Assembly (NCBI GenBank): GCA_965655095.1
Contig: OZ296652.1
Location: 39,742,001 to 39,806,000, forward strand
Direction of reading: 5' to 3'
DNA length: 64,000 nucleotides
Origin: Haplodiscus bocki
Lineage: Eukaryota
Made by a program: the position numbers and the translations under genes. Below, piece after piece: positions 1 through 52,190 of the stretch. The notes beneath the pieces were generated by a model. It searched no databases, was not told the DNA's origin, and saw nothing but the letters and a program-made list of their open reading frames with translations. The number at the start of each line of letters is the position of its first letter. Positions within the stretch are counted from its first letter, which is position 1.

Positions 1-3000
1 TTTGGGGAAGCAACATGGTCAATTTATCTTGCGAGTAGAAGGAAAGGTTGAAAACCTCAATATGGTTCTGTGACCAAAATTTGTGTATCTGCTCATCTGA
101 ACCTGGCCTTTAATTAAAGTATCCCAAACATAGTGAATGTGAAATGAACATAACTCTTTATCGATGGTATTGTTTTTCGTATAAAACCAGAGATATACGA
201 AAAACAAGCTCTAACAAATGATAGAGAACCACTTTAGGTATTCTGTGATAACGTTTCGGTCACCTATCTTTTTTGGGGCGTCAACGTGGTTACCCCAACT
301 TCAAACTAACAGCGCTTTTTTATCGGTATGTGACCAGTATTTTGTTCTGTGGTATTTCTACGTTTGAGATAGTATAAAGTGTAGCAGTTGCTACATATCT
401 TTAAGCCATTCTCTTCCATGTGAAGCTACATTCAAGGTGCTCCGATCTTTAGATTAGTTTCTATTTGTTTCGTTACACCATTCATTCTGAAATGCCCTCT
501 CTCGGTGGCGAGGAAAAAATTACTTGTGACAATTGTGTTAACCAGACCACAAGATGCCATGTTGGCTCACAAAGGACATTCTGCTGGATCCCTTACTTGT
601 CCCTCTGGTACCAATTTCTCAACACAATTTCAAGTTGAATTGAAATATCACATTGCCAACAAATTTTCACCAGCAAATCCTAGAACTGTGGTAAGAATCG
701 GGATGGAAAATGTTGAAATCTTCTGTAAGTTTGAATTGATCCACCTGTAGTTCAAACTTGTCAATGAAAAAAAGCAATTTTGAATATATTGAAAATGGGT
801 TGATAAACGCATTTGTCTGTTTGAGAGTTCGATGTTCTGTTTAAAGCAAAGAAAAGGGACCTTGTTTTGTGATTTGCTAGATCTAATCTCATCTTCGGGT
901 TTCGGCTGTCGAATCTGTAATAAAATGTCAGCTTCAGTAATTGTTTTTCTAAAAATCACGCAAATCGCGGAGTGGGGAACCAAAGTCCTGTCTGGAGATA
1001 CTTATTCTTTTAGAGGATGTAACACTTCTTTGTCTTCAAAACTCAAAAAAGGAATTTTTTTTTCAAGAAGACGTTCCGTTGCGGCCTTTGCTATCTCGTG
1101 CTATTCAATGCCGGGAGTAGGAAACGTCGAGAACAATGTTGTAGAAAAAATTTTGTACGTCCAACTGTCCCTAAAGTTTTTTTGAAACTCTTCGTGAAAA
1201 GATTCATTTTGCACTAACTGGGAAGTGTTTTTTCGACAGCCAACAATAGTTTTACAGTCAATAAGTTCTGGAAAAAATGTTTTTGCATGGATTTTAGTGA
1301 ACGCAATGCGTTTGGATAAACAATGCGACTTCCAGCCTTCCAGTGACGGCAACGATTTTCTTTTGACCAATCGTTTTTACACGTCTCACTTTTAACGGTA
1401 AATTGCAAAACTGTGGCATATTGATCGAGCAGAAAAAGTTTAACTAGGTCACTAGAAGAAAATACATCAACAAATCTAAGAATCAGAAATTTTTCAGCAA
1501 TCAACTTCACAGTCTACGCTATTTTCGATTTTTGTTCTTTTTGTAGAAGTCCATCTGATTGGCAGTTGAATCTAAATTAGACATGATAACCAAAATCTAA
1601 ATCTCACACAATCTGTCCCCCTATCAGGGGAACTTGCTCCAATTGTGCGTTTTTCTCCAACGATTTATCGCGCGACCGCAGCATCTTCTTTGGACTTGAA
1701 TTTTCTGAGACTACATGTCATCTTGGCTAAGGGAAAATGTTTCATGTGAGTGGTCTTCTCAACCACTCTGTCATAATATGGCAGCATCATATTTCTACTT
1801 GATTGCTTTCATCCAACAGACTGTCCCTTCTTGCAAATTCTAGTTGCTTTCGTTTCACTCGGAAAAAAAGAACAAAAATGTGGCTCACAAATTTGATAGA
1901 GAACAACCTCACAAAATTTGTGCTAGAACTTCACTTGTCTATGATTTTTGGTGAAGCAACATGGTCAATTTATCTTGCGAGTAGAAAGAAAAATTGAACA
2001 CCTCAAGATGGTTCTGTGACCAAATTTTGTGTATCTGCTCATGTGAACCTGGCCTTTAATTAAAGTATCCCAAACATAGTGAATGTGAAATGAACATAAC
2101 TCTTTATCGATGGTATTGTTTTTCGTATAAAACCAGAGATATACGAAAAACAAGCTCTAACAAATGATAGAGAACCACTTTAGGTAGTCTCTGATAAAAT
2201 TTCGGTCACCTATCTTTTTTGGGGCGTCAACGTGGTTACCCCAACTTCAAACTAACAGCGCTTTTTTATCGGTATGTGACCAGTATTTTGTTCTGTGGTA
2301 TTTCCACGTTTGAGATAATATAAAGTGTAGCAGTTGCTACATATCTTTAAGCCATTCTCTTCCATGTGAAGCTACATTCAAGGTGCTCCGATCTTTAGAT
2401 TAGTTTCTATTTGTTTCCTTACACCATTGATTCTGAAATGCCCTCTCTCGGTGGCGAGGAAAAAATTACTTGTGACAATTGTGTTAACCAGACCACAAGA
2501 TGCCATGTTGGCTCACAAAAGACATTCTGCTGGATCCCTTACTTGTCCCTCTGGTACCAAATTCACAACAGAATTTCAAGTTGAATTGAAATATCACATT
2601 GCCAACAAATTTTCACCAGCAAATTCTAGAACTGTGGTAAAAATCGAGATGGAAAATGTTGAAATCTTCTGTAAGTTTGAATTGATCCACCTGTAGTTCA
2701 AATTTGTCAATGAAAAAATGCAATTTTGAATATATTGAAAATGGGTTGATAAACGCATTTGTCTATTTGAGAGTTCGATGTTCTGTTTAAAGCAATGAAA
2801 AGGGACCTTGTTTTGCGATTTGCTAGATCCAATCTCATCTTCGGGTTTAGGCTGTCGAATCTGTAATAAAATGTCAGCTTCAGTAAATGCTTTTCAAAAA
2901 ATCACGCAAATCGCGGAGTGGGGAACCAAAGTCCTGCTCGGAGATACTTATTCTTTTAGAGGAGGTAACACTTCTTTGTCTTCAAAACTCAAAAAAGGAA

Positions 3001-6000
3001 ATTTTTTTTCTAGAAGACGTTCCGTTGCGGCCTTTGCTATCTCGTGCTTTTCATTGCCGGGAGTAGGAAATGTCGAGAACAAAGTTGTAGAAAAAATTTT
3101 GTACGTCCAACTGTCCCAAAATTTTTTCTGAAGCTCTTCATAAAATGATACATTTTGCACTAACTGGGAAGTGTTTTTTCGATAGCCAACAATAGTTTAC
3201 AGTCAATAAGTTCTGCAAAAAATGTTTTTGCATGCATATTAGTCAAAGCAATGCGTTTGGATAAACAATGCGACTTCCAGCCTTCCAGTGACGGCAACGC
3301 TTTTCGTTTGGCCAATCGTTTTTACACGTCTCACTTTTAACGGTAAATTGCAAAACTGTGGCATATTGATTGAGAAGAAAAAGTTTAACTAGGTCAATAG
3401 AAGAAAATACATCAACAAATCCAAGAATCAGAAATTTTTCAGCAATCAACTTCACAATCTGTGCTATTTTCGATATTTGTTCTTTTTGTAGAAGTCCCTC
3501 TGATTGGCAGTTGAATCTAAATTAGACATGATAACCAAAATCTAAATCTCACACAAGCTGTCCCCCTATCAAGGGAACTTGTTCCAATTGTGCGTTTTTC
3601 ACCAACGATTTATCGCGCGACCGCAGCATCTTCTTTGGACTTGAATTTTCTGAGACTACCTGTCATCTTGGCTAGGGGGAAATGTTTCATGTGAGTGGTC
3701 TTCTCAACCACTCTGTCATAATATGGCAGCATCATATTTCTACTTGATTGCTTTCATCCAACAGACTGTCCCTTCATGCAAATTCTAGTTGCTTTTGTTT
3801 CCCTCAGATAAAAAAAAACAAAAATGTGGCTCACAAATTTGATAGAGAACAACCTCACAAAATTTGTGCAAGAACTTCACTTGTCTATGATTTTTGGGGA
3901 AGCAACATGGTCAATTTATCTTGCGAGTAGAAGGAAAGATTGAAAACCTCAATATGTTTCTGTGACCAAATTTTGTGTATCTGATCATGTGAACCTGGCC
4001 TTTAATTAAAGTATCCCAAACATAGTGAATGTGAAATGAACATAACTCTTTATCGATGGTATTGTTTTTCGTATAAAACCAGAGATATACGAAAAACAAG
4101 CTCTAACAGATGATAGAGAACCACTTTAGGTAGTCTGTGATAAAAATTCGGTCACCTATCTTTTTTGGGGCGCCAACGTGGTTACCCCAACTTCAAACTA
4201 ACAGCGCTTTTTTATCGGTATGTGACCAGTATTTTGTTCTGTGGTATTTCCACGTTTGAGATAGTATAAAGTGTAGCAGTTGCTACATATCTTTCAGCCA
4301 TTCTCTTCCATGTGAAGCTACATTTAAGGTGCTCCGATCTTTAGATTAGTTTCTATTTGTTTCGTTACACCATTCATTCTGAAACGCCCTCTCTCGGTGG
4401 CGAGGAAAAAATTACTTGTGACAATTGTGTTAACCAGACCACAAGATGCCATGTTGGCTCACAAAAAACATTCTGCTGGATCCCTTACTTGTCCCTCTGG
4501 TACCAATTTCTCAACAGAATTTCAAGTTTAATTGAAATATCACAATGCCAACAAATTTTCACCAGCAAATCCTAGAACTGTGGTAAAAATCGGGATGGAA
4601 AATGTTGAAATCTTCTGTAAGTTTGAATTGATCCACCTGTAGTTCAAACTTGTCAATGAAAAAATGCAATTTTGAATATATTGAAAATGGGTTGATAAAC
4701 GCATTTGTCTGTTTGAGAGTTCGATGTTCTGTTTAAAGCAAAGAAAAGGGACCTTGTTTTGTGATTTGCTAGATCTAATCTCATCTTCGGGTTTCGGCTC
4801 TCGAATCTGTAATAATATGTCAGCTTCAGTAATTGCTTTTCAAAAAATCACGCAAATCGCGGAGTGGGGAACCAAAGTCCTGTTCGGAGATACTTATTCT
4901 TTTAGAGGAGGTAACACTTCTTTGTCTTCAAATCTCAAAAAAGGAAATTGTTTTTCTAGAAGACGTTCCGTTTCGGCCTTTGCTATCTCGCGCTATTCAA
5001 TGCCGGGAGTAGGAAATGTCGAGAACAATGTTGTAGAAAAAATTTTGTACTTCCAACTGTCCCAAAAGTTTTTTTGAAACTCTTCTTAAAATGATACATT
5101 TTGCACTATGTGGGAAGTGTTTTTTCGACAGCCAACAATAGTTTACAGTCAATAAGTTCTGCAAAAAATGTTTTTGCATGCATATTAGTCAAAGCAATGC
5201 GTTTGGATAAACAATGCGACTTCCAGCCTTCCAGTGAAGGCAACGATTTTCTTTTGACCAATCGTTTTTACACGTCTCACTTTTAACGGTAAATTGCAAA
5301 ACTGTGGCATATTGATGGAGAAGAAAAAGTTTAACTAGGTCACTAGAAGAAAATACATCAACAAATCCAAGAATCAGAAATTTTTCAGCAATCAACTTCA
5401 CAGTCTGTGCTATTTTCGATATTTGTTCTTTTTGTAGAAGTCCCTCTGATTGGCAGTTGAATCTAAATTAGACATGATAACCAAAATCTAAATCTCACAC
5501 AAGCTGTCCTCCTATCAGGGGAACTTGTTCCAATTGTGCGTTTTTCACCAACGATTTATCGCGCGACCGCAGCATCTTCTTTGGACTTGAATTTTCTGAG
5601 ACTACCTGTCATCTTGGCTAAGGGAAAATGTTTCATGTGAGTGGTCTTCTCAACCACTCTGTCATAATATGGCAGCATCATATTTTTACTCTATTGTTTT
5701 CATCCAACAGACTGTCCCTTCATGCAAATTCTAGTTGCTTTCGTTTCCCTCAGAAAAAAAAGAACAAAAATGTGGCTCACAAATTTGATAGAGAACAACC
5801 TCACAAAGTTTGTGCTAGAACTTCACTTGTCTATGATTTTTGGGGAAGCAACATGGTCAATTTATCTTGCGAGTAGAAGGAAAGATTGAAAACCTCAATA
5901 TGGTTCTGTGACCAAATTTTGTGTATCTGCTCATGTGAACCTGGCCTTTAATTAAAGTATCCCAAACATAGTGAATGTGAAATGAACATAACTCTTTATC

Positions 6001-9000
6001 GATGGTATTGTTTTTCGTATAAAATCAGAGATATACAAAAAATAAGCTCTAACAAATGATAGAGAACCACTTTAGGTAGTCTGTGATAAAGTTTCGGTCA
6101 CCTATCTTTTTTGGGGCCTCAACGTGGTTACCCCAACTTCAAACTAACAGCGCTTTTTTATCGGTATGTGACCAGCATTTTGTTTTGTGGTATTTCCACG
6201 TCTGAGATACTATAAAGTGTAGCAGTTGCTACATATCTTTCAGCCATTCTCTTCCATGTGAAGCTACATTCAAGGTGCTCCGATCTTTAGATTAGTTTCT
6301 ATTTGTTTCCTTACACCATTGATTCTGAAATGCCCTCTCTCGGTGGCGAGGAAAAAATTACTTGTGACAATTGTGTTAACCAGACCACAAGATGCCATGT
6401 TGGCTCACAAAAGACATTCTGCTGGATCCCTTATTTGTCCCTCTGGTACCAAATTCACAACAGAATTTCAAGTTGAATTGAAATATCACATTGCCAACAA
6501 ATTTTCACCAGCAAATCCTGGAACTGTGGTAAAAATCGGGATGGAAAATGTTGAAATCTTCTGTAAGTTTGAATTGATCCACCTGTAGTTCAAACTTGTC
6601 AATGAAAAAATGCAATTTTGAATATATTGAAAATGGGTTGATAAACGCATTTGTCTATTTGAGAAATCGATGTTCTGTTTAAAGCAATGAAAAGGGACCT
6701 TGTTTTGCGATTTGCTAGATCTAATCTCATCTTCGGGTTTCGGCTGTCGAATCTGTAATAAAATGTCAGCTTCAGTAATTGCTTTTCAAAAAATCACGCA
6801 AATCGCTGAGTGGGGAACCAAAGTCTTGTTCGGAGATACTTATTCTTTTAGAGGAGGTAACACATCTTTGTCTTCAAAACTCAAAAAAGGAAATTGTTTT
6901 TCTAGAAGACGTTCCGTTGCGGCCTTTGCTATCTCGTGCTATTCAATGCCGGGAGTAGGAAATGTCGAGAACAATGTTGCAGAAAAAACTTTGTACTTCC
7001 AACTGTCCCAAAAGTTTTTTTGAAACTCTTCGTAAAATGATACATTTTGCACTAATTGGGAAGTGTTTTTTCGACAGCCAACAATAGTTTACAGTCAATA
7101 AGTTCTGCAAAAAATGTTTTTGCATGCTTATTACTGAAAGCAATGCGTTTGGATAAACAATGCGACTTCCAGCCTTCCAGTGACGGCAACGCTTTTCTTT
7201 TGACCAATCGTTTTTACACGTCTCACTTTTAACGGTAAATTGCAAAACTGTGGCATATTGATTGAGAAGAAAAAGCTTAACTAGGTCAGTAGAAGAAAAT
7301 ACATCAACAAATCCAAGAATCAGAAATTTTTCAGCAAGCAACTTCACAATCTGTGCTATTTTCGATATTTGTTCTTTTTGTAGAAGTCCCTCTGATTGGC
7401 AGTTGAATCTAAATTAGACATGATAACCAAAATCTAAATCTCACACAAGCTGTCCTCCTATCAGGGGAACTTGTTCCAATTGTGCGTTTTTCACCAACGA
7501 TTTATCGCGCGACCGCAGCATCTTCTTTGGACTTGAATTTTCTGAGACTACCTGTCATCTTGGCTAAGGGAAAATGTTTCATGTGAGTGGTCTTCTCAAC
7601 CACTCTGTCATAATATGGCAGCACCATATTTTTACTTGATTGCTTTCATCCATCAGACTGTCCCTTCATGCAAATTCTAGTTGCTTTCGTTTCCCTCAGA
7701 AAAAAAAGAACAAAAATGTGGCTCACAAATTTGATAGAGAACAACCTCACAAAGTTTGTGCTAGAACTTCACTTGTCATCTATGATTTTTGGGGAAGCAA
7801 CATGGTCAATTTATCTTGCGAGTAGAAGGAAAGATTGAAAACCTCAATATGGTTCTGTGACCAAATTTTGTGTATCTGCTCATGTGAACCTGGCCTTTAA
7901 TTAAAGTATCCCAAACATAGTGAATGTGAAATGAACATAACTCTTTATCGATGGTACTGTTTTTCGTATAAAACCAGAGATATACGAAAAATAAGCTCTA
8001 ACAAATGATAGAGAACCACTTTAGGTAGTCTGTGATAAAGTTTCGGTCACCTATCTTTTTTGGGGCGTCAACGTGGTTACCCCAACTTCAAACTAACAGC
8101 GCTTTTTTATCGGTATGTGACCAGCATTTTGTTCTGTGGTATTTCCACGTCTGAGATACTATAAAGTGTAGCAGTTGCTACATATCTTTCAGCCATTCTC
8201 TTCCATGTGAAGCTACATTCAAGGTGCTCCGATCTTTAGATTAATTTCTATTTGTTTCCTTACACCATTGATTCTGAAATGCCCTCTCTCGGTGGCGAGG
8301 AAAAAATTACTTGTGACAATTGTGTTAACCAGACCACAAGATGCCATGTTGGCTCACAAAAGACATTCTGCTGGATCCCTTACTTGTCCCTCTGGTACCA
8401 AATTCACAACAGAATTTCAAGTTGAATTGAAATATCACATTGCCAACAAATTTTCACCAGCAAATCCTGGAACTGTGGTAAAAATCGGGATGGAAAATGT
8501 TGAAATCTTCTGTAAGTTTGAATTGATCCACCTGTAGTTCAAACTTGTCAATGAAAAAATGCAATTTTGAGTATATTGAAAATGGGTTGATAAACGCATT
8601 TGTCTATTTGAGAGTTCGATGTTCTGTTTAAAGCAATGAAAAGGGACCTTGTTTTGCGATTTGCTAGATCTAATCTCATCTTCGGGTTTCAGCTGTCGAA
8701 TCTGTAATAAAATGTCAGCTTCAGTAATTGCTTTTCAAAAAATCACGCAAATCGCTGAGTGGGGAACCAAAGTCTTGTTCGGAGATACTTATTCTTTTAG
8801 AGGAGGTAACACATCTTTGTCTTCAAAACTCAAAAAAGGAAATTGTTTTTCTAGAAGACGTTCCGTTTCGGCCTTTGCTATCTCGCGCTATTCAATGCCG
8901 GGAGTAGGAAATGTCGAGAACAATGTTGTAGAAAAAATTTTGTACTTCCAACTGTCCCAAAAGTTTTTTTGAAACTCTTCTTAAAATGATACATTTTGCA

Positions 9001-12000
9001 CTAACTGGGAAGTGTTTTTTCGACAGCCAACAATAGTTTACAGTCAATAAGTTCTGCAAAAAATGTTTTTGCATGCATATTAGTGAAAGCAATGCGTTTG
9101 GATAAACAATGCGACTTCCAGCCTTCCAGTGACGGCAACGCTTTTCTTTTGACCAATCGTTTTTACACGTCTCACTTTTAACGGTAAATTGCAGAACTGT
9201 GGCATATTGATTGAGAAGAAAAAGCTTAACTAGGTCAGTAGAAGAAAATACATCAACAAATCCAAGAATCAGAAATTTTTCAGCAAGCAACTTCACAATC
9301 TGTGCTATTTTCGATATTTGTTCTTTTTGTAGAAGTCCCTCTGATTGGCAGTTGAATCTAAATTAGACATGATAACCAAAATCTAAATCTCACACAAGCT
9401 GTCCCCCTATCAAGGGAACTTGTTCCAATTGTGCGTTTTTCACCAACGATTTATCGCGCGACCGCAGCATCTTCTTTGGACTTGAATTTTCTGAGACTAC
9501 CTGTCATCTTGGCTAAGGGAAATGTTTCATGTGAGTGGTCTTCTCAACCACTCTGTCATAATATGGCAGCATCATATTTCTACTTGATTGCTTTCATCCA
9601 ACAGACTGTCCCTTCATGCAAATTCTAGTTGCTTTCGTTTCCCTCAGATAAAAAAAAACAAAAATGTGGCTCACAAATTTGATAGAGAACAACCTCACAA
9701 AGTTTGTGCTAGAACTTCACTTGTCTATGATTTTTGGGGAAGCAACATGGTCAATTTATCTTGCGAGTAGAAGGAAAGATTGAAAACCTCAATATGGTTC
9801 TGTGACCAAATTTTGTGTATCTGCTCATGTGAACCTGGCCTTTAATTAAAGTATCCCAAACATAGTGAATGTGAAATGAACATAACTCTTTATCGATGGT
9901 ATTGTTTTTCGTATAAAACCAGAGATATACGAAAAATAAGCTCTAACAAATGATAGAGAACCACTTTAGGTAGTCTGTGATAAAGTTTCGGTCACCTATC
10001 TTTTTTGGGGCGTCAACGTGGTTACCCCAACTTCAAACTAACAGCGCTTTTTTATCGGTATGTGACCAGCATTTTGTTCTGTGGTATTTCCACGTCTGAG
10101 ATACTATAAAGTGTAGCAGTTGCTACATATCTTTCAGCCATTCTCTTCCATGTGAAGCTACATTCAAGGTGCTCCGATCTTTAGATTAGTTTCTATTTGT
10201 TTCCTTACACCATTGATTCTGAAATGCCCTCTCTCGGTGGCGAGGAAAAAATTACTTGTGACAATTGTGTTAACCAGACCACAAGATGCCATGTTGGCTC
10301 ACAAAAGACATTCTGCTGGATCCCTTACTTGTCCCTCTGGTACCAAATTCACAACAGAAATTCAAGTTGAATTGAAATATCACATTGCCAACAAATTTTC
10401 ACCAGCAAATCCTGGAACTGTGGTAAAAATCGGGATGGAAAATGTTGAAATCTTCTGTAAGTTTGAATTGATCCACCTGTAGTTCAAACTTGTCAATGAA
10501 AAAATGCAATTTTGAGTATATTGAAAATGGGTTGATAAACGCATTTGTCTATTTGAGAGTTCGATGTTCTGTTTAAAGCAATGAAAAGGGACCTTGTTTT
10601 GCGATTTGCTAGATCTAATCTCATCTTCGGGTTTCAGCTGTCGAATCTGTAATAAAATGTCAGCTTCAGTAATTGCTTTTCAAAAAATCACGCAAATCGC
10701 TGAGTGGGGAACCAAAGTCTTGTTCGGAGATACTTATTCTTTTAGAGGAGGTAACACATCTTTGTCTTCAAAACTCAAAAAAGGAAATTGTTTTTCTAGA
10801 AGACGTTCCGTTTCGGCCTTTGCTATCTCGCGCTATTCAATGCCGGGAGTAGGAAATGTCGAGAACAATGTTGTAGAAAAAATTTTGTACTTCCAACTGT
10901 CCCAAAAGTTTTTTTGAAACTCTTCTTAAAATGATACATTTTGCACTAACTGGGAAGTGTTTTTTCGACAGCCAACAATAGTTTACAGTCAATAAGTTCT
11001 GCAAAAAATGTTTTTGCATGCATATTAGTGAAAGCAATGCGTTTGGATAAACAATGCGACTTCCAGCCTTCCAGTGACGGCAACGCTTTTCTTTTGACCA
11101 ATCGTTTTTACACGTCTCACTTTTAACGGTAAATTGCAGAACTGTGGCATATTGATTGAGAAGAAAAAGCTTAACTAGGTCAGTAGAAGAAAATACATCA
11201 ACAAATCCAAGAATCAGAAATTTTTCAGCAAGCAACTTCACAATCTGTGCTATTTTCGATATTTGTTCTTTTTGTAGAAGTCCCTCTGATTGGCAGTTGA
11301 ATCTAAATTAGACATGATAACCAAAATCTAAATCTCACACAAGCTGTCCTCCTATCAGGGGAACTTGTTCCAATTGTGCGTTTTTCACCAACGATTTATC
11401 GCGCGACCGCAGCATCTTCTTTGGACTTGAATTTTCTGAGACTACCTGTCATCTTGGCTAAGGGAAAATGTTTCATGTGAGTGGTCTTCTCAACCACTCT
11501 GTCATAATATGGCAGCATCATATTTTTACTTGATTGTTTTCATCCAACAGACTGTCCCTTCATGCAAATTCTAGTTGCTTTCGTTTCCCTCAGAAAAAAA
11601 AGAACAAAAATGTGGCTCACAAATTTGATAGAGAACAACCTCACAAAGTTTGTGCTAGAACTTCACTTGTCTATGATTTTTGGGGAAGCAACATGGTCAA
11701 TTTATCTTGCGAGTAGAAGGAAAGATTGAAAACCTCAATATGGTTCTGTGACCAAATTTTGTGTATCTGCTCATGTGAACCTGGCCTTTAATTAAAGTAT
11801 CCCAAACATAGTGAATGTGAAATGAACATAACTCTTTATCGATGGTATTGTTTTTCGTATAAAATCAGAGATATACAAAAAATAAGCTCTAACAAATGAT
11901 AGAGAACCACTTTAGGTAGTCTGTGATAAAGTTTCGGTCACCTATCTTTTTTGGGGCCTCAACGTGGTTACCCCAACTTCAAACTAACAGCGCTTTTTTA

Positions 12001-41396: not shown

Positions 41397-44300
41397 AACT
41401 TCTCAACAGAGTTTCAAGTTGAATTGAAATATCACATTGCCAACAAACTTTCACCAGCAAATGCTAGAACTGTGGTAAAAATCGAGATGGAAAATGTTGA
41501 AAACTTCTGTAAGTTTGAAATGATTCACCTCTAGTTCAAACTTGTCAAGGAAAAAAATGCAATTTTGAATATACTGAAAATGGGTTGATGAACGCATTTG
41601 TCTGTTTAAGAGTTCGATGTTCTGTTTAAAGCAATGAGAAAGGACCTTGTTTTGTGATTCGCTAGATCCAATCTCGCCTTCTGGGAGATGTTTGATCGAC
41701 AGCCAAGAATAAAATTCAGTCAGCAATTTCTGTAAAACTAGTTTTTTGCATGCATAATCGTGAAAGCAATGCGTTTGAATAAACAATGCAACTTTTGGCC
41801 TTCCAGTGATGGCAACGCTTTTCTTTTGACCACCTGCATTTAAATGTCTCACTTTTAACAGTAAATTGCAACACTGTGGCATATTGATTGAGAAGAAAAG
41901 GGTTAACTAGGTCACTAGAAGAAAATACATCAACAAATCCAAGAATCAGAAAATTTTCAACAATCAATTTCACAATCTGTGCTGCTTTCGATAACTGTTC
42001 TCTTTGTAGAACCCCTCTGATTGGCAGTTGAATCTAAATTAGACGTGATGACCAAAATCTAACTCTCACCCAAGCTGTCTCCCTATCAGGGGAACTTGTT
42101 CCAATTGTGCATTTTTCTCCACCAAATTGTCGTCCGACCGCAGGATCCTTTTTGTCCTTGAAATTTCCGAGACTACCTGTGATCTTAGCTAAGAGAAAAT
42201 GTTTCATGCGAGTGGTCTTCTCAACCACTCTGTCATAATATGGCAGCATCAATTTTCTACTTGATTGCTTTCATCCAACAGACTGTCCCTTCATGAAAAT
42301 TCTAGTTGCTTCCGTTTCCCTCACGAAAAATAGAACAAAGATGTGGCTCACAAATTTGATAGAGAACAACCTCACAAAATTTGTGCTAGAACTTCACTTG
42401 TCTATGATTTTTGGGGAAGCAACATGGTCAATTTATCTTGCGGGTAGAAGGAAAGATTGAAAACCTCAATATGGTTCTGTGACCAATTTTTGTGTATCTG
42501 CTCATGTGAACCTGGCCTTTAATTAAAGTATCCCAAACATAGTGAATGTGAAATGAACATGACACTTTATCGATGGTATTGTTTTTCGTATAAAACCAGA
42601 GATATACGAAAAACAAGCTCTAAGAAATGATAGAGAACCACTTTAGGTAGTCTGTGATAAAGTTTCGGTCACCTGTCTTTTTTGGGGCGTCAACGTGGTT
42701 ACCCCAACTTCAAACTAACAGCGCTTTTTTATCGGTATGTGACCAGTATTTTGTTCTAATGTATTTCCACATTTGAGATAATATAAAGTGTAGCAGTTGC
42801 TACATACCTTTAGGCCATTCTCTTTCTTGTAAAGCTACAGTCAAGGTGTTCCGATCTTCAGATTAGTTTCTGTTTGTTTCGTTACACCATTGATTGTGAA
42901 ATGCCCTCTCGGTCGCTCCGAAAAATTTGCTTGTGACAGTTGTGGTAATCAAACCACAAGAAGCCATGTTGGCTCACAAAAGACATTCTGCTGGATCCCT
43001 TACTTGTCCTTCTGGTACCAACATCTCAACAAAGTTTCAAGTTGAATCGAAATATCACATTGCCAACAAACTTTCACCAGCAAATGCTAGAACTGAGGTA
43101 TAAATCGAGATGGAAAACGTTGAAATCTTCTGTCAGTTTGAATTAATTCATTTGTAGTTCAAACTTGTCACGGAAAAAATGCATTTTTGAATAAATTGGA
43201 AATGGATCGATAAACGCGTTTGTCTGTTTGAGAGTTTGATGTTCTGTTTAAAGCAATGGGAAAGGACCTTGTTTTGTGACTCGATATATCCAATCTCGTC
43301 TTCGGGTTTCGGCTGTCGAATTTGTAATAAATTGCCAGCTTCAGGATTTTTTTTTCGAAAAATCACGCAAATCGTGGAGTGGGGAACCAAAATCCTGTTC
43401 GGATATATATACTTCTTTTAGAGGAGATAACACTTCTTTGTCGTCAAGTCTCAAAAAGAGAAAAACTTTTTTGTGGAAAACGTAATGTTCCGGCCTTTGC
43501 TATCTCGTGCTATTCGATGCCGGCACTAGGAAATGTCGAAAACAATTTTGTAAAAACATTTGTATACGTCCAACTGTCCCAAAAGTTTTTTGAAACTATT
43601 CGTAAAAATAAACAATTTGCACTAACTGGGAAGTGTTTTTTCGAAAGCCAACAACAGTTTACAGTCAGTAAGTTCTGCAAAAAAATGTTTTTTTTTGCAT
43701 GCATAAACGTGAAAGCAATGCGTTTGAATAAACAATGCAACTTTCGGCCTTTCATTGATGGAAACTCTTTTGTTTTGACCAATCGCTTTTCAACGTCTCA
43801 CATTTAACAGTAAATCGTGAATCTGTGGCATAATGATTGAAAAGAAATTGGTTAACTAGGTCACTATAAGAACAAACATCAACAAATCTAAAAATCAGAA
43901 GTTTTGCAACAATTGACTACATAGTCTTTGCTAATTTCGATATCCTTTTCTTTTGTAGAAGTCCTTCTGATTGGCAGTTGAATCTAAATTAGACATGATA
44001 ACCACAATCTAAATCTCACACAAACTGTCTCCCTATCAGGGGAACTTGTTCCAATTGTGCGTTTTTCTCCAGCAACTTGTCGCCCGACCGCGGGATCCTT
44101 TTTGTACTTGAAATTTCCGAGACCACCTGTCTTCTTAGCTAAGGGAAAATGTTTCATGTGAGTGGTCTTCTCAACCACTCTGTCGCCATATGGCAGCATC
44201 AATTTTCTACTTGATTGCTTTCATCAAACAGACTGTCTTTTAATGCAAATTCTAGTTGCTTTCTTTTCCCTCAGAGAAACAAAGAATGAAATTGTGACTC

Positions 44301-46130
44301 ACAAATTTGATAGAGAACAACCTCACAAAGTTTGTGCTAGAACTTCACTTGTGTATCATTTTTTGGGAAGCAACATGGTCAATTTAAATTGCGAGTAGAA
44401 ATATTGATGGATAACTTCAATGTGGTTATCTGAGCAAACGTTGTTCATCTGCTCCTGCGAACCTGGCTTTTATTTAAAGTCTCCAAAACATAGTGAATGT
44501 GAAATGAACTTAACTTTTTGTAGATGGTAGTGTTTTTTGTAAAAAACCAGAGCAGTACGAAACACTAGCTCTGACAAATGATAGAAAACAACTTTAGGTA
44601 GTTTGTGATAAAGTTTCGGTCGCTTAACGTTCATGGGACGCCAACTTGGTCACTCCAACTCCAGACAAACAGCGATGTTTATGGGTATGTGACCAGTATT
44701 TTGTTCTGTGGTATTTCCACTTTTGGGATAATATAAAGTGTAGCAGTTTCTACATACCTTTAGGCCATTCTCTTTCTTGTAAAGCTACAGTCAAGGTGCT
44801 GCGATCTTCAGATTAGTTTCTGTTTGTTTCGTTACACCATTGATTCTGAAATGCCGTCTCTCGGTTGCGCCGAAAAAATTACTTGTGACAGTTGTGGTAA
44901 TCAAACCACAGGAAGCCATGTTGTCTCACAGAAGACATTCTGCTGGATCCCTTACTTGTCTTTTTTGTACCAACATCTCAACAGAGTTTCAAGTTGAATT
45001 GAAATATCACATTGCCAACAAACTTTCACCAGCAAATGCTAGAACTGAGGTAAAAATCGAGATGGAAAACGTTGAAATCTTCTGTCAGTTTGTATTGATT
45101 CATTTGTAGTTCAAACTTGTCAAGGAAAAAATATTTGTGTGTTTTTCTCCAACAATTTGTCACCCGACCGCAGGATCTCTTTTGTACCTGAATTTTCCGA
45201 GGCTACCTGTTATCTTAGCTAAGCGAAAATGTTTCGTGTGAGTGGTCTTCTCAACCACTCTGTGGCCATATGGCAGCATCATTTTTCTATTTGAATATTT
45301 TCATCAAACAGACTGTCTCTTTGTGCAAGTTCTACTTGCTTTATTTAACCTCAGAAAAACAAGGAACGAAAATGTTTGTCGAAATTTTGATAAAGAGCAA
45401 CCTCACAAAGTTTGTTGCTAGAATTCCAATTGTGTATGATTTTTGGGGAAGCAACGTGGTCAATTCAAATTGTGAGTGGAAATATTGACTGAAAACCTCA
45501 TTGTTGTTATGTGATCAGAGTTTGTATGTCGTATGTCTTCTCCTGTGAACCTGGTTTTTATTTGAAGCGTCCAAAACATAATGACTGTGAAATAAACATA
45601 ACTTTTTATCGCTTATAGTGTTTTTCGTATAAAACGAGAGGTATACCAAAAACTAGCTGCAACAAACGATAGGGAACAACTTTTGTTAGTTTGTGATCAA
45701 TTTATATTTTCGTATGCTTTTTGGCGCGCCAACGTGGTCACTCCAGCTTCAAACTAACAGCACGTTTTCATGGGTATACGATGCGTATTTCGTTCTAGGG
45801 TATTTCCACATTTGAAATATTATAAATTTCGACAGTTGCTACGTATCTTTCAGAGATTATCTCTGTTGTAAATCTACATTCAAGGTGCTTCGATCTCTAG
45901 GTTGATTTCAGAATGTTTCCCTATACTTTTGTTTCTGAAATGTCCTCTGTCAGTCGCACCAGAAAAGTCACTTGTGACAGTTGTGGTACCCAAACCACAA
46001 GAAGCGTTATTGGCTCACAAAAAGTTCTGCTGGATCGTTTACATGTCTGTCTGGTACCAACTGCTCAACGGAGTATCGACTTGAAATCAAATGTCACATT
46101 GCCAACAAAATTACTGCAGCAATTTCCAGA

Positions 46131-46520
46131 GCCGCGGTAAATATCGCAAGGGGTAATGTTGACATTTTCAATTTCAATAAGGTTCAATTGAATGACATCT
46201 GGTTCAAACTTTTCAACGGGAAAGAAGCATGCTTGATTTCTTTGTAATTAGACTGATAAACGCATTTCTCCCTTTGATGCTTCAATGATATGTTTATAGC
46301 AAAGAAAAAAGACCGTGTTTTGGTATTCGATAGATCCACTCTCGATTTGGGTTCCGGCAGTCGAATCTTTGATAATTTGCCAGCTTCAGGAATTGCTTTG
46401 AAAAGTTCACGCGAATCACGGAGTGGGGATTCAAGTTGTTGTTCGGAGATACCTAATTATTTTAAAAGAGATAACACTTCTCTGTCTTTAAATCTCAAAA
46501 AAGGAAAAATTTGTTTCTAG
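46131..46520 (+). pseudogene. 3' remnant of an uncharacterised element ORF ('ORF A'); present in each intact unit
   Basis: One frame reads ...AVNIARGNVDIFNFNKVQLNDIWFKLFNGKEACLISL*...MFIAKKKDRVLVFDRSTLDLGSGSRIFDNLPASGIALKSSRESRSGDSSCCSEIPNYFKRDNTSLSLNLKKGKICF* (track ORFs 45981 and 46290 share a frame). Homologous frames occur in other units. No recognisable family. Confidence 0.45.
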
Positions 46521-47890
46521 AAGATGTTTTGTTGCGGCCTTCGCTAACTTATGCTGTTCGATTCAAAAAATTGGAAATGGAATTGGAAATGTCAAAAACA
46601 GTATTGTATAATTAACTATCTACGTCCAGCTGTCCCAGAATTTTTAGTAACTGTTCTTTAAACTATAGATTTTACACCAGCTGGGACGTGTTTTTTCGAC
46701 GGTCAACAATAGTTTCTAGTCAGTAATTTCTGCAAAAATAGTTTTCTGGATGCATAATCGTGAAAGCGATGCGTTTGAATAAACAATGCAACTTCCGGCC
46801 CTTCAGTGATGGCAACGCTTTTCGTTTGTCCAATCGCTTTTTAACGTCTGACATTTAACAGTAAATTGTGAAACTGTGGCATAATGAATGAGAAAAAAAG
46901 GGTTAACTAGGTCACCAGAAAAACATACATCAGCAAGTCCACAAATCAGAAGTTTTTCAGCAATCAACTTCAAAATCTGTGCTATTTTCGATTCTTGTTC
47001 CTTTTGTAGAAGTCCTTCTGATTGGTAGTTGAATCTAAATTAAACCTTGTAACCAAAATCTAATTCTCGCGCAAACTTTCGTTCTATCGGGGGAATTTGG
47101 TGCAATTGTGCCTTTTTCTCCGACAAATTGTCGCCCTACCGCAGGATCCTTTTTGTACTTGAAATTTCCGAGACTACTTGTCTTCTTAGCTGAGGGGAAA
47201 TGCTTCATGTGAGTGGTCTTCTCAGCCACTCTTTCGCCATATGGCGGCAACGATTTTCCACTTGAATTTTTTCATCAAACTGAGTGTCTCTTTATGCAAG
47301 TTCTACTTGCTTTATTTTCCCTCAGCAAAACAAAGAACAAAAATGTCGCCCACAATTTTGAGAGAAAACAACCTCACAAAGATTGTGCTCGAATTTCACT
47401 TGTGTTTGAATTTTGAGAAAGCAACGTGATCAATTCAACTTGCGGGTGGAAATAATGATTGAAATCTTCAATGCGGTTTTGTGACCAAATTTTGTGTATC
47501 TGCTCATGTTAACCTGGCTTTCACTTAATGTCTCCAAAACACATTGAATGTGAAATGAACACAACTTTTCATCGATGCTAGTGTGTTTCGTATAATCCAA
47601 GAACTGTACGAAAGAAGAGCTCTACCAATCAATAGGGAAACACTTTAGGTAGTTTCTGATAAAATTTCGGTCGCGTATCGTTTTCGGGGCGCCAACTTGG
47701 TCACTTCAACTTCATAATAACAGTTTTTTATTGGGTATGTGACCAGTATTTCGTTCTATGGTATTTCCACATTTGAGATGATAGAAAGTTTAACAGTTTC
47801 TACGTATCTTTGGGCCATTATCTTTATCGTAATGCTATAGTTAAGGTGCCTCCAAGTTTAGATTCAATTCACATTCGTTGTTACACTATT
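46517..47890 (-). pseudogene. Decayed ~450-codon uncharacterised ORF ('ORF B'), head-to-head with PolB; present in each intact unit
   Basis: Minus-strand fragments join across frameshifts and stops into one Cys/Trp/His-rich reading: ...SQMWKYHRTKYWSHT...TIDKKLCSFHIHYV...MSRYTKFGH...QVQKGSCGRAT...RFWLQGLI/RFNYQSEGLLQKEQESKIAQILKLIAEKLLICGL...DLVNPFFLIHYATVSQFTVKCQTLKSDWTNEKRCHH...RLCIQKT...FWDSWT...RPQQNIF* (mostly from this copy; the TIDKKLCS block is from other units). The start codon is uncertain. Confidence 0.6.
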
Positions 47891-47898
47891 GATTCTGA

Positions 47899-50800
47899 AT
47901 GACTCTTTCTCAATCGCAACGACAAAATTACTTGCGACAGTTGTGGTACCCAAACCACAAGAAACCATTTTGGCTCACAAAAATGGTCTGCTGGATTCCC
48001 TAAACGTCTTTCATGTACCAACTTTTCAAAAGAGTCTCAATTAGAAATGAATTATCACCCTGCCAAAAAACGGTCTGCAGCAAAACCTAGAGATGTTTAT
48101 AACTACAATCGTTTTGATAAACAATTTCACAAATTTTTTATTGCGAGGACATAAACTGAAGGAGCTTGAGCACCGAAAGGATCAAGAAATCAAAAAGCAG
48201 ACATTACAAAAAAACTGGGAGCCATTGAAGTCAGTCGTCCGAAGAAAGAACCAGAAAAAGTGAAGAATCTCATCGTGCACATCGAGAAAAACAACGAGAA
48301 ACAGTGTGTCTTCAATTTTGCTATTAACTTTCTGGAGCCAATAATTTGGCTGGAAAAATATGACACTCCTTTGACATCGCTTCAAATGTACAGTTTAGCT
48401 GAATCTAGCCTTTGACGTTGTGCCCAAAGGTGTAGATAGAACATGGGAGATGTTGGTATGATTACGCACACGAGAATAAGAAACTGCTGGAACGATCTAA
48501 ACTTGCAGCTAAAAATAAGACTTTACAGAAATCAAACTCTTTTGAATTGAAAACAGTGTCTAGAAATTGTGTACAAGAGATTGACCAAATGCAAAATAGA
48601 AATTCTACACGCTAACGAACGTTGCAATCTTTGCTACACTGCTCAAAGAAACTCCGATGGAGTGTAGAGATGCTTTAATGAGAGATCCCCGAATAAAATT
48701 CAGTCTGTCAATTAATTAACATTCGAAGAGAAAATCCCAAAAACATAAAACAGTATTAGCGTTAGATTTGGTTGCAAATGAGAGATCGGAGGATAAAACT
48801 ACCTAAATAACTCAATTTTTTTATCAAAAGAAATCAGTGGAATTGGTCCCGCAATCTACCGATGTGTTTTGAGGGAAGTTTTTTGCAAAAACGGAGGACT
48901 GTGTTCAAGCAGACATGATCTGGTGCAGCACTGACTTCTATTCATGTCTATGTTTGGCGAGCTTGTGAGAAGAACACGGAAGAACCATAAGGCTGTACTA
49001 CTAGAACAAAAACATGGGCACAGTTGCTTTGTCTCTGATAGTAAAATAAACATCAACGCCTATCGTTGCTGTTCCTCTGGTCAATTCATCAAGAAGACTC
49101 CGGACTTTGAGCAAAATGTGACAACCTGCAAAAAAGAACTTAACATAATTTTCCGAAAACTGTGTATCAACTGCGAAAACCATCTTTCTGGGAAATTAGC
49201 TTCCCTGAGTATGTCTTACGCCAATGTCCAAAAACTCTTCAAAGACATGGAAATTTTTGATTTTGAATCAATTTGTGTGCAGGAAGACCAATTCCGCGAT
49301 TCCGATACTGCAACCTGGATCGGTATGCGCGTTCCAATATCTCGGCCAATTTTCTCCAACTTGAATGAACAACGAACCTTTTAATGCCATTTCAATCTAA
49401 AAAATTTGGTTGAGTGGTTTGTAAATGCTCTCGATGGAGTAGAACACCAAGCAAAGCTCAGATGAATTGGAAGTTTTCGCAGATTGAGACTAGTGTAATC
49501 AGCAAACTTGATCAAATTTTTTCTTTTTTTTTCAACGTAGCTGTCGCAATGAACCATCAATGGAAATTCGAGATGGCTGTATCGAAAAAGAAGAGCAAGA
49601 TGTATCGACACAGTCTTTACAACCACTCAAGAATCAAATAATTGAATTGCAGAATCACTTGAAAATGTATTGAAACGTTCTTTTTGTCAATGGCTTCAAC
49701 AGCGCAAAGTACGACACTTATTGAAGAAAGAGAAACATACTGGCTCCCATCGTTATTAAACGAAGTGTTGAGCCAATGGTGATCACGAAGGCTAATCAGT
49801 TTGAATCTTTCAAGTTCGGTGATGTTCAGTTGCTAGAAATGATGAACTTTTTCGGAGATACCACGAATCTTCTTTCTTGAAAGCGTACAAGACATGAGAT
49901 AGAAAAGTTTTTTATTCAGTTGAATGGTTCGATTATCCAAGAGAGCTGCAGAGTCTTCAAATCCTTCATTATGAAGCCTTCTTCAGCACACGCCACAACA
50001 TTAATCTTCAAGGAAAAGACTATTCAGAGTTTTAAAGTTTAATTGATGGGGGTATGACATCCAAGGAAGCCTGATCAAATCCAAAAGTAAGTGAACCATC
50101 TCTATCTGGAAAAAAACTATGAATAACTGAAAGGTGTGTGTGAACAAGAGGAAATATGTACGTTCAATATCATTTTGAGCTGGTATAACAGCAATGATGT
50201 TGCTCCAAGTTAGCAGCTAATCAAAAGTTGGCTGACTTTTACCACAAGAAAAGAACGTTGCGGGTTTGCCTTGCCAATTCTTGAAATTTTTTTTCTGCAT
50301 AAGTTAACTAATCCGAGGAAATATCCCTCCACAGAGAGCGAAAAAACTTTGTTGGAGAAAAAATTGAGGATTTGGTTGGTGGAGCAACCATTGTATTTAC
50401 ATGCAATGCTGTTTTAGACAAGACTGTTACTCGTGATTTAACAAACTGGTGCAAGGCATTTGTCGGAAATGGTGCAGGGCAGCATTATCCTTAACCTATG
50501 TGTCAACTGATTTTTGTGGGTCAGTACGCAAAATGGGGGCTAGATTCTGCATGTGGCAAGATTAAACCACGTCAAAAAATAGGACGCGGAGTTTTGAAAA
50601 CTTGATCATGTCATAACCTCAGAGAGTCTGACGAAGGCGAAAGTGGCCGTTTCTACACAACAGGCAGACAGAGACAAATTGGCACTTGTAGCCTTGAATG
50701 CATTTTTGGATACTGTAACAGTGTGTTTTAGGCTAAGGCATGCTATCATCATGTTTATCCCGGTGACGAAGTACGTCCTTCTCTCACTGACAGTAAAATT

Positions 50801-52190
50801 CAGCGAGCCCTAAAAAGACAGAACTACACGAACTACGAAAACGGTATAAACAAGAAAAGGGTTTTCACATCATGAAGGTTTACTAATGTGAACCGTGGAA
50901 AATATGCGAGACAGACAGTGCTGTTAAGCAGACTCTGACTGAATTTTCCCCCAACAAAACGCCACTCAGAAAAGGAAGACATTTCCAAAATAAGAAAAAG
51001 GAATTCTGTATGGTCAAGTTCAATGAATCAATCAAGTACCAGAGGAACTTCGTCTAAACTTTGCGAACTTTTCACCAATCATTAGTAACAAAAATGTTTG
51101 CAGTGATGAAATTCGCCAGCTTATAAAAACAATAGGTCTAAAGAGAAGTTTTAAATTCAATTTAGAAAAATATTAATATCAAATTACCCGTTAGGCAGAA
51201 GAACACTCATTACAACCTTGTTGTTCTTTCAGTTGGATTTGGGGCCACTTACGGAAAAACAATCGCTATCTGCAATACACATTGGTGAAATGTTTCAAGT
51301 TTTTTCAGTCCGCAGTGAATGATAGAAGGTAGAGCGACTGAAATCCAATCCCTGACGTTGAGGCAGGCACAGATATGAAGATACTAGCTAACAGTTTTCA
51401 TGGTTTCCAAAATTTGTTTCGGACCTGACATAGAATCACAAAAGATCTGGGACCCAAAAATACAATGAACAACCAATAAGAAAACAGTTTGAGCGTTTGG
51501 CTTTTCATAATTTATTATTTGTTTGAGGTAGAGATTGTCAGGTCTGAAATTGAACACGAAGAGTCGTTACTTGTCGGTTTTCTCATGCTGTAGTATGCAA
51601 AACTGAGAATGCTAGAGCTTTTTAAAATTTTTAGACATGTATTGCAATGTTTTAGTGTTTGAGGAGCTGGCGAGCGACGAAGACTCGCTCTATTTAACTT
51701 TAATCGAGCAAAAATATTATGACTGTATTTCCACATCATTGGAGAATGAATGGAAATATTTGGGAAGGGGAGACTGTACGCATGAGTTTTCGGCTATTCC
51801 AATAACCTTTTTACTTCCTCATACTTGTTGCACTAAGCATAAAGAATGCAAAAAAGCGAACCTGGCCCTTTTAAAGACAAAATCAGCTTCATGGAGAGAC
51901 TCTGCTTAGCTTTTTTGTGTTGCTATGACTTTCAGGTTCTGGACGGAAATCAACGTTAGCAGAAGAAGCGTGACCGAAAGAACGCTTGAAGACTGTGGTG
52001 ATGCTTCCCTGTCCTTGTATTGCAAAAAATGGAAGAGATTGTTATTGTATAGTCGGCAAGTGGAGACTTGAGCACAAAACAACATACTGTGGCCACAAAG
52101 TAGCAAGAAAATAAGAGATTGTCGTATATTTATCCCTGAAGGAATACTCAACAAGATTATATACACACTCACCTCCAAAAATTTAAAAAA
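47899..52190 (+). pseudogene. polB: Protein-primed family B DNA polymerase pseudogene (Polinton/Maverick/adintovirus-like)
   Basis: Motifs occur in the correct order: N-terminal CDSC zinc finger; ExoI IFDFESICV (49253-49279); ExoII GFNSAKYD (49692-49715); ExoIII WYNSNDV (50181-50201); DLVGG (~50369); motif A remnant VGNGAGQHYP*PMCQ (50462-50506, consensus DxxSLYP); motif B MKILANSFHGFQ (51375-51410, KxxxNSxYG); YAKLRMLE; motif C EELASDEDSLY (51661-51693, DTDS); C-terminal LSYIYP*RNTQQDYIHT. There are many stops and frameshifts. Confidence 0.9.

Follow-up and report, generated by a model that had tools for sequence, protein, structure and literature searches.

Structure of the tandem array

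The window analysed here, a 64,000-nucleotide stretch of the Haplodiscus bocki genome, carries the right half of a tandem array, a decayed protein-primed B-family DNA polymerase gene into which the last unit of that array continues, and the right terminal inverted repeat of a Polinton (Table 1). The units lie head-to-tail, with k-mer offsets of 1,938-1,949 bp (window 1-48,091), and their 76-100% identity over ~1.9 kb excludes a chance resemblance. The whole array covers ~94.9 kb (G000:C5:39,695,201-39,790,091), 46.8 kb of it left of the window, and comprises 54 junctions and 55 copies, 42 of them full-length and all in one orientation; the junction count comes from 55 matches after exclusion of a weak off-register one. 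The window holds 25 junction-started units (23 full-length and two shortened, at 41,469 and 45,044) besides a partial unit at 1-684. The preliminary description of this DNA, which spoke of a >48-kb array amplified at least 25-fold, was thus right about the array and understated its size. Its claim that the unit ends ~190 bp into a gene and that the last copy passes this breakpoint was borne out: each full unit of ~1.95 kb contains most of ORF A, the start of the divergently oriented polymerase gene (~190 bp) and all that separates these two genes, and the last copy reads through at 48,092 into the remainder of that gene, which is single-copy here. The genome yielded no second array of the same unit.

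Table 1. Position and nature of the features in the window
Feature	Position	Strand	Description
Right half of tandem array	1..48091	+	k-mer offsets, junction matches
Subfamily block 1	685..16254	+	eight 1,945-1,949-bp units, 95-99% identical mutually, 88-89% to main units of block 2
Subfamily block 2	16255..41468	+	thirteen units; multi-unit duplications, mosaic units
Older edge units	41469..46130	+	three units, two shortened
Last unit	46131..48091	+	junction at start; continues into polymerase gene
ORF A remnant in last unit	46131..46706	-	in all full units; frameshifted Polinton gene, ~188 of 208 codons kept
Region between divergent ORF A and polymerase genes	46707..47898	.	~100-bp and ~270-bp internal repeats; "ORF B" falls here
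Decayed protein-primed B-family DNA polymerase gene	47899..52170	+	aligns to relatives up to ~52,170
Right terminal inverted repeat	52291..53154	+	52,291-53,009 matches left repeat

The array has the traits of a satellite, being non-coding and showing concerted evolution with subfamily blocks, higher-order duplications and older edges. In block 2, positions 27,898-31,781 and 37,586-41,468 are 98.9% identical, and 16,255-22,073 and 31,782-37,585 are 98.4% identical. The edge units consist of one without ~320 bp (41,469-43,091), a full one that is 84-87% identical to the core (43,092-45,043) and one without ~865 bp (45,044-46,130). The last unit is the most diverged, with 76-79% identity to every other unit and a K2P distance of 0.25 to the nearest, and the oldest units are found at both array edges. 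Short units of ~805 bp (n=7) had one common deletion in all six tested.

Gene content of the unit

An intact relative of ORF A has a predicted two-repeat PUR/Whirly/PC4-like fold, based on a structure model with a pLDDT of 56 and middling scores throughout fold matching. The top match was Pur-alpha (3k44; Z 7.9, rmsd 4.5, 116 aligned), followed by 2it9 and 2nvn (Z 6.9) and MRP1/2 (Z 5.5); Foldseek gave no match at E <= 0.001, with Sub1/PC4 among the weak rows, and the ESM Atlas returned unnamed clusters only (scores 0.78 and 0.75). A compensated, working ORF A, in which three 1-bp deletions amount to one codon, was considered and rejected, because the homologous parts are in different frames and the units evolve neutrally. 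The "ORF B" of the preliminary description did not hold up either. The stretch has no codon periodicity among 16 relatives, and ~360 bp of it is absent from relatives and had no clear match in the loci compared, much of which is accounted for by the ~270-bp internal duplication. It was rejected as a gene for the missing periodicity and for a peptide with three weak outside matches, with the reservation that a small gene might be obscured by frameshifts.

The parent element

The polymerase gene contains at least nine frame changes, and direct Pfam scans of it gave no match, whether as stop-free segments or as six single frames with stops as X. It was therefore assigned by way of relatives: the pieces L045:8800-9999 and L046:2-754 pass Pfam DNA_pol_B_2 (PF03175) with 30.0 and 30.3 bits (cut-off 25.8), and their alignments with the window polymerase have E values of 6e-44 and 7e-23, respectively. 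A PDB sequence search with a piece of the polymerase gave no meaningful match. The left flank of the array carries the 3' part of the capsid-like gene (E 1e-16) together with remnants of several further Polinton ORFs, in the order and orientation of the family. These ORFs are mostly 32-49% identical to young relatives at the amino-acid level, and the right-hand polymerase mostly 29-45%.

The left half of the parent measures 6.3 kb, against 19.0 kb for a young element. Between the left repeat and the array there was no match to an integrase, and this block appears to be deleted; the packaging ATPase was not found in the parent copy, and the sequence originally on the left side of the first breakpoint has been deleted as well. 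At the right end a worn copy of the AGT-type terminus of the family lies near 53,151-53,154. The left terminus is lost, so that the target-site duplication of the parent is unreadable. The left repeat (G000:C5:39,688,901-39,689,633) is 66% identical to the right one over 749 columns and is its best non-self match (E 5.6e-42, the next being 1.1e-19, with 15 candidates across the 1.5 Gb of the genome). From ~19 kb, the element has grown to 106 kb. The earlier view that the progenitor is still in place applies to the parent, whose halves and inverted repeats are preserved on both sides, but not to the read-through copy itself, which is an array unit with a junction at its start and the lesions shared by the others.

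Polinton relatives in the genome

More than a thousand candidate Polinton pieces occur in the genome, and the neighbourhood of the array is rich in Polintons. The left part of the unit lies upstream of the polymerase, in the same order, in 13 of 15 elements chosen by polymerase similarity alone; together with the Pfam assignment of the relatives' polymerase, this agrees with the initial reading of the unit as an internal Polinton segment. We found no close relative of the parent, the best polymerase matches being 66-76% identical. Inverted repeats of young relatives were 818-951 bp long and 96-99% identical in three of eight locus pairs, and shorter, more worn or absent in the others; AGT-repeat termini and flawless target-site duplications of 6 bp were each present in all three young relatives examined. 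Among the proteins of the family, the integrase (rve) is above the Pfam cut-off in L043:2137-3099, and the packaging ATPase (Pox_A32) is below it (E 6.5e-4 and 3.8e-3). A 449-aa capsid-like protein had no Pfam or PDB sequence match, and its low-confidence model (pLDDT 38.6) matched many viral major capsid proteins (13 matches at E <= 0.001, with a TM of about 0.25). The integrase was the sole ORF named by PHROGs, and no Pfam or PHROGs label for a cysteine protease or minor capsid protein was obtained (60 and 19 ORFs scanned).

The hallmarks reported for Polinton/Maverick (adintovirus) fossils are a protein-primed polymerase, integrase, packaging ATPase and capsid-like gene, long inverted repeats (100-1,500 bp), AGT-type ends and a target-site duplication of 5-8 bp, typically 6, and most copies are degraded by mutation (PMC8097293, bioRxiv 10.1101/2023.08.22.554363, PMC8502044). 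The present family shares the polymerase, integrase, long inverted repeats, AGT-type ends and 6-bp duplications, with a candidate packaging ATPase and a capsid-like gene, and this copy is likewise decayed; it differs in being without most of the integrase-ATPase block and the left terminus, and the parts of those sources considered here make no mention of internal macrosatellites.

Probable decay before amplification

A frame-breaking 5-bp deletion in the 5' part of the polymerase (unit position ~1,827) is present in all 39 aligned units, the read-through copy included, and the units also have small ORF A deletions in common. Among relatives with sequence at the 5-bp site, 13 of 15 are full length there and the other two are gapped at different columns, an absence that refers to distant kin, since the parent has no close relative among the elements found. 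One of them, L073, has the same length as the units and was rejected as a carrier of the lesion since its gap is at other columns. Differences at codon positions 1/2/3 were 0.18/0.15/0.25 among relatives against 0.18/0.15/0.16 among units in ORF A, and 0.21/0.25/0.41 against 0.16/0.16/0.14 in the polymerase start. A lesion common to the units and missing from relatives, with no excess of third-position differences, suggests that the genes were probably dead by the time of amplification.

The inverted repeats of the parent give K2P distances of 0.32-0.42 (SE 0.03), two edge units 0.25-0.28 (SE 0.014) and core neighbours 0.001-0.04. The gap between repeats and edge units is modest and alignment-dependent (0.32 +/- 0.03 vs 0.25 with lenient gap costs), and homogenisation would make the between-unit distances too small; the repeats were older under every gap setting tried.

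Origin of the array

With a probability of about 0.8, we consider that ~55 copies of a 1.95-kb internal segment of a single old Polinton arose, probably in place, after the element had been broken, by one microhomology-seeded duplication followed by host unequal exchange. The order of events would then be insertion, decay, first duplication and expansion. Because both parent halves and both end repeats still flank the array, the locus likely records how, once the element had died, ordinary recombination of the host gave birth to a satellite in place. Between the two breakpoints, 8-9 of 10 bases agree in 10 of 12 relatives, compared with 8 of 10 in 1.7% and 9 in 0.17% of random position pairs; this is one event, seen through non-independent relatives with 58-68% identity to the unit, and the junction lies ~2 bases off register. 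A short imperfect microhomology of this kind may have seeded the first duplication. Multi-unit blocks of 98-99% identity and short units with one common deletion point to unequal exchange, and unequal crossover or break-induced copying could have driven the expansion. There is a second array at a distance of 48 kb, with a period of ~2.0 kb and derived from another element, which argues for a host-level process that is not specific to this Polinton. The array itself would be neutral and without function; it is probably neutral DNA, with no new molecular machine indicated.

It is unlikely that the element's own replication made the first duplication, as in a lesioned, defective Polinton with internal tandems that was integrated by a helper and expanded by the host later. 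Such a history would fit a parent without most of its integrase-ATPase block, as a non-autonomous element might be, a family that forms internal repeats here and one whole-element tandem (17,085 bp), and repeat and edge-unit distances that nearly overlap in the lenient alignment. However, the junction was seen in this array alone (40/40 scored matches, of 89 candidates), the unit peptide from the "ORF B" stretch had 54 of its 57 matches there and three weak ones elsewhere (all 122 candidates scored), and the age order of repeats and edge units held at all gap settings. The array might also be kept by selection, because overlapping transcripts of both strands and small RNAs would act against Polintons, or because it would serve as DNA of a centromere-like or heterochromatin-seeding kind. 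Domesticated virus DNA with ~50 divergent promoter regions would then yield dsRNA and small RNAs curbing Polintons, or centromere-like chromatin, in a chromosome region where dead elements become ~2-kb macrosatellites; we regard this as improbable. Each full unit does keep the whole region between the two divergent genes, core turnover is very recent (nearest neighbours K2P 0.001-0.02), the layered ages resemble those of centromeric arrays in the part of PMC13011684 considered, and potential targets are numerous in this genome. Yet units just 58-68% identical to dispersed elements would probably be poor silencing guides, 12 units of the array are shortened, nine of them by ~865-1,150 bp, 95 kb at a single locus is small, and an unrelated array of similar period adjoins; CpG ratios (0.64-0.92 in units vs 0.71-0.98 in relatives) point to a slight footprint only.

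The halves could also derive from two Polintons, with an ectopic crossover at non-matching positions as the first duplication, in which case the repeat distance would not date the insertion. As a route to satellites, unequal crossover of homologous elements has been proposed (review PMC12628747, in part), and the 66% repeat identity, the unreadable target-site duplication and the Polinton-rich surroundings would all accommodate it, but no other genomic match of the right repeat comes near the left one, the halves are equally decayed and collinear, and edge units on both sides have the same lesions, all of which makes a double origin very unlikely. That most of the array is an artefact of assembly is hardly credible: although identity exceeds 99% between some neighbouring units, no exact repeat in the window's part of the array is longer than 1,796 bp, which is less than one unit, no N letters occur in the window or in 20 neighbouring stretches checked, and unit identities range from 72 to 100%, in a nested tree with inherited deletion variants. 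In the youngest blocks, the number of copies may still deviate by a few units.

Relation to other satellites

The initial statement that no such case had been described was too strong, as Polinton-similar satellites are reported in PMC4935994 and PMC8268682. CgiSat52 of Crassostrea gigas is, as here, a kilobase Polinton-labelled monomer at one chromosome (1,656 bp, DNA/Polinton, 17 or 6 monomers depending on the assembly; PMC8268682). Its label is a Repbase similarity only, non-Helitron similarities there being fragmentary, and parent, junction and timing are not given in the sections of that paper considered; the array described here has about three times more copies, is bracketed by its parent and has a unit collinear with a Polinton except for ~360 bp. 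LmiSat34-299 of Locusta migratoria is also homologous to Polinton coding sequence, that of Polinton-1_LMi, but has a 299-bp monomer whose copy number was put at about 1,000-1,300 on the basis of short reads, with no locus anatomy in the portion considered (PMC4935994).

Satellites are further known to arise from internal transposon parts, with arrays growing inside MITEs and Helitrons (PMC12628747), and internal-to-internal tandems occur in Drosophila (PMC5932611). As far as these two sources were covered, such arrays are alike in their two-stage birth, surviving element ends and proposed microhomology seed, but have short units or involve rolling-circle replication or double insertion in a mobile element, whereas here the 1.95-kb unit joins gene and intergenic sequence and the element was likely already dead. 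The review (PMC12628747) has no occurrence of Polintons or Mavericks. In the openly available full-text literature, we found no description of an array within a Polinton with both ends kept, and passages of PMC12694884, PMC13130569, PMC7859515 and bioRxiv 10.1101/2021.06.02.446622 contained nothing pertinent. Polinton-related satellites are already catalogued, and what is new is the preserved parent with its internal clock.

As a rule, the earliest stages of satellite DNA leave no trace, and here they stay readable: at one locus the inverted repeats clock the insertion, the shared lesions indicate that the genes were probably dead before amplification, and edge-to-core divergence gives the later turnover. 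The timing and rate of satellite birth thereby become testable across individuals and related species. For genome annotation, the 95-kb array may be labelled as dozens of Polinton insertions.

Array structure and extent

Within the window, k-mer offsets of 1,938-1,949 bp define a tandem array in one orientation, and the sequence rightward of 48.1 kb is free of self-repeats. When a natural unit was aligned end to end against the window, 23 full-length copies, two shortened copies and a partial first copy were recovered. The size of more than 48 kb given in the preliminary description holds, but covers only the window's portion of an array that neighbouring stretches extend leftward to about 94.9 kb. 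Probing for the junction yielded 55 matches and, with one weak off-register match excluded, 54 junctions; the whole array comprises 55 copies, namely 41 internal units of full length, 12 shortened ones, the read-through copy that continues into the polymerase gene, and the partial first copy. Exact repeats in the window's part of the array reach at most 1,796 bp, a length that speaks against duplication by the assembler, and on the sequence as assembled we regard the tandem repeat as real. Searches of the 1.5-Gb assembly placed all 43 matches of the unit middle inside the array (40 of 53 candidates scored), as well as all 40 scored matches of the junction (of 89 candidates) and 54 of the 57 matches of the unit peptide (all 122 candidates scored).

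Features of the array, its parent element and other loci (bare positions are those of the window; G000, assembly; C5, the window's contig; C1, another contig; L numbers, neighbouring or dispersed stretches)
Feature	Position	Description
Window	G000:C5:39,742,001-39,806,000	
Array, window portion	1-48,091	
Array, left limit	G000:C5:39,695,201	
Natural unit	20,134-22,073	
Left parent remnants	G000:C5:39,689,787-39,695,182	capsid-like gene, several further ORFs
Terminal inverted repeats of parent	52,291-53,009 and G000:C5:39,688,901-39,689,633	492/749 columns identical
Right end of parent	near 53,151-53,154	worn version of family terminus
Broken LINE	53,914-56,659 (minus strand)	endonuclease (PF14529) and reverse transcriptase (PF00078) pieces
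Younger Polintons	L013-L015, G000:C5:39,658,800-39,675,500; L021	13 kb and ~125 kb left of parent, opposite orientation
Old mid-array units	L007:2893-6789 (G000:C5:39,734,893-39,738,789)	nearest K2P 0.19 and 0.16
Cysteine-rich small ORFs	L045:5142-5639; L042:5733-6149	adjacent, upstream of unit
Second array	G000:C5:39,611,718-39,646,857 (L019:9718 via L076, L018, L017 to L016:4857)	~35 kb, 2.0-kb period, ~17 units, 87-91% identity
Third array	L024 (G000:C5:39,442,001-39,452,000)	937-bp period
Fourth array	L058 (G000:C1:28,940,001-28,950,000)	778/1,555-bp period
Head-to-tail duplication	L033-L037 (G000:C1:117.10-117.14 Mb)	17,085-bp period, 99.4-99.9% identity

Origin of the repeat unit

The derivation of the array from an internal Polinton segment was right in outline. 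The last unit and the DNA following it on the right align collinearly, at about 57-69% identity, with 13 of the 15 elements retrieved via the polymerase alone and with the seven element copies retrieved via the unit. Pieces of these relatives score above the Pfam thresholds for DNA_pol_B_2 and for rve, and match Pox_A32 weakly. All three relatives examined have AGT-type termini and are flanked by perfect target duplications of 6 bp, both being Maverick/Polinton features (PMC8097293; bioRxiv 10.1101/2023.08.22.554363). The family's 449-aa protein gives a poor structure model, yet matches many viral major capsid proteins.

Three parts make up the unit: some 188 of the 208 ORF A codons, on the minus strand; a stretch of about 1.2 kb that separates ORF A from the divergently oriented polymerase gene; and the initial ~190 bp of that polymerase gene. 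Database searching gave 1,793 relatives of ORF A; among the 120 matches listed, none carries a name. Its model shows two beta-sheet-plus-helix repeats and, since the top structural match (Pur-alpha) has a middling Z of 7.9, single-strand nucleic-acid binding is a prediction only. The gene 'ORF B', proposed between ORF A and the polymerase, is not supported: codon-position differences among 16 relatives are flat (0.24/0.22/0.24), about 360 bp of the region is confined to the units, and it contains internal repeats of about 100 and 270 bp. The two cysteine-rich ORFs resemble each other at 31-46% and are likely a duplicated zinc-binding gene pair of the family.

The parent element

The gene right of the array had been read as a decayed protein-primed polymerase and, although direct Pfam scans gave no match, this stands by way of the relatives, to whose polymerases it aligns with E-values down to 6e-44 and at least nine frame changes. 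The left-flank remnants keep the family's order and orientation, most of them showing 32-49% identity to young relatives; no integrase-ATPase block was recovered from this flank. The left inverted repeat is the best non-self genomic match of the right one among all 15 candidates. The left terminus is lost, and the target duplication is therefore unreadable. The parent now spans 106 kb, versus 19.0 kb in a young relative. The family's inverted repeats carry a ~30-bp minisatellite, the broken LINE sits just outside the right one, and the younger Polintons to the left are much less decayed than the parent.

Order of events and turnover

The alignment combined 16 relatives with those full-length units, 39 out of 42, that a single sequence stretch contained in full. 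All 39 units, both edge units included, lack 5 bp around unit position 1,827, within the polymerase frame, and none of the 15 relatives with sequence there shows this deletion at those columns; small ORF A deletions near positions 324, 496 and 517 are also common to the units. Third codon positions are the most variable among relatives, but not among units. K2P distances are 0.32-0.42 between the parent's inverted repeats, depending on gap costs, 0.25-0.28 between the two edge units and 0.001-0.04 between core neighbours. Together, the common lesions, codon pattern and distance ladder suggest insertion, decay, a first duplication and continued turnover, in that order, the clock alone not being decisive.

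In the tree, the units form one clade with a star-like base and position-linked subfamilies, the longest branches being those of both array edges and two old mid-array units. The latter, unhomogenised and stranded between the left and right subfamilies, suggest two separate expansion centres. Multi-unit blocks are 98-99% identical, and the ~805-bp short units share one deletion (six of six tested); unequal exchange or break-induced copying would yield such block duplications and inherited deletion variants. Older layers at array edges have been described (PMC13011684). The two breakpoints agree at 8-9 of 10 bases in 10 of 12 relatives (chance rate 1.7% for 8 bases, 0.17% for 9), which is only suggestive of microhomology as the seed, given a single event and a junction about 2 bases off register.

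The likely mechanism behind the array is ordinary. The clock leaves room for a defective Polinton genome integrated with the duplication already present, but this is improbable, dispersed carriers having so far not been found. Slightly less probable is maintenance by selection for a role: identity between the units and dispersed elements is only 58-68%, and internal deletions affect many units; a function is unlikely. That the parent is a chimera of two elements is very doubtful, as it conflicts with the left inverted repeat being the best genomic match of the right one, and an assembly artefact, at odds with the nested variation among units, is the least credible.

Known satellites and other arrays

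Internal and coding regions of transposons are known to give rise to satellites (PMC12628747; PMC5932611). The preliminary description knew of no comparable case, but Polinton-linked satellites already feature in catalogues: LmiSat34-299 shows a match to coding DNA of a Polinton (PMC4935994), and CgiSat52 has a 1,656-bp monomer, a Polinton label and 17 or 6 copies on one chromosome (PMC8268682). For Triatoma, Polinton-like DNA adjoining satellite arrays has been noted (PMC5983683). In the literature searched (supplements: that of PMC4935994), no description turned up of an array lying between the two ends of the Polinton from which it came, a novelty that may shift with the alignment position of LmiSat34 and further supplements. 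The locus is a cleaner fossil record than was first recognised.

The second array lies 48 kb from the one studied and has a similar period; 1.2 kb of its unit matches a dispersed sequence whose copies are paired in inverted orientation at a spacing of 5-8 kb and which is likely an end repeat belonging to a different element. Polinton inverted-repeat DNA touches both flanks of this second array. Given these further arrays, a tendency to amplify pieces of elements in tandem seems to belong to the Haplodiscus bocki genome rather than to Polintons. The fourth array is found immediately past a Polinton polymerase gene, and the 17,085-bp duplication includes a Polinton gene set and is preceded by a further polymerase gene.
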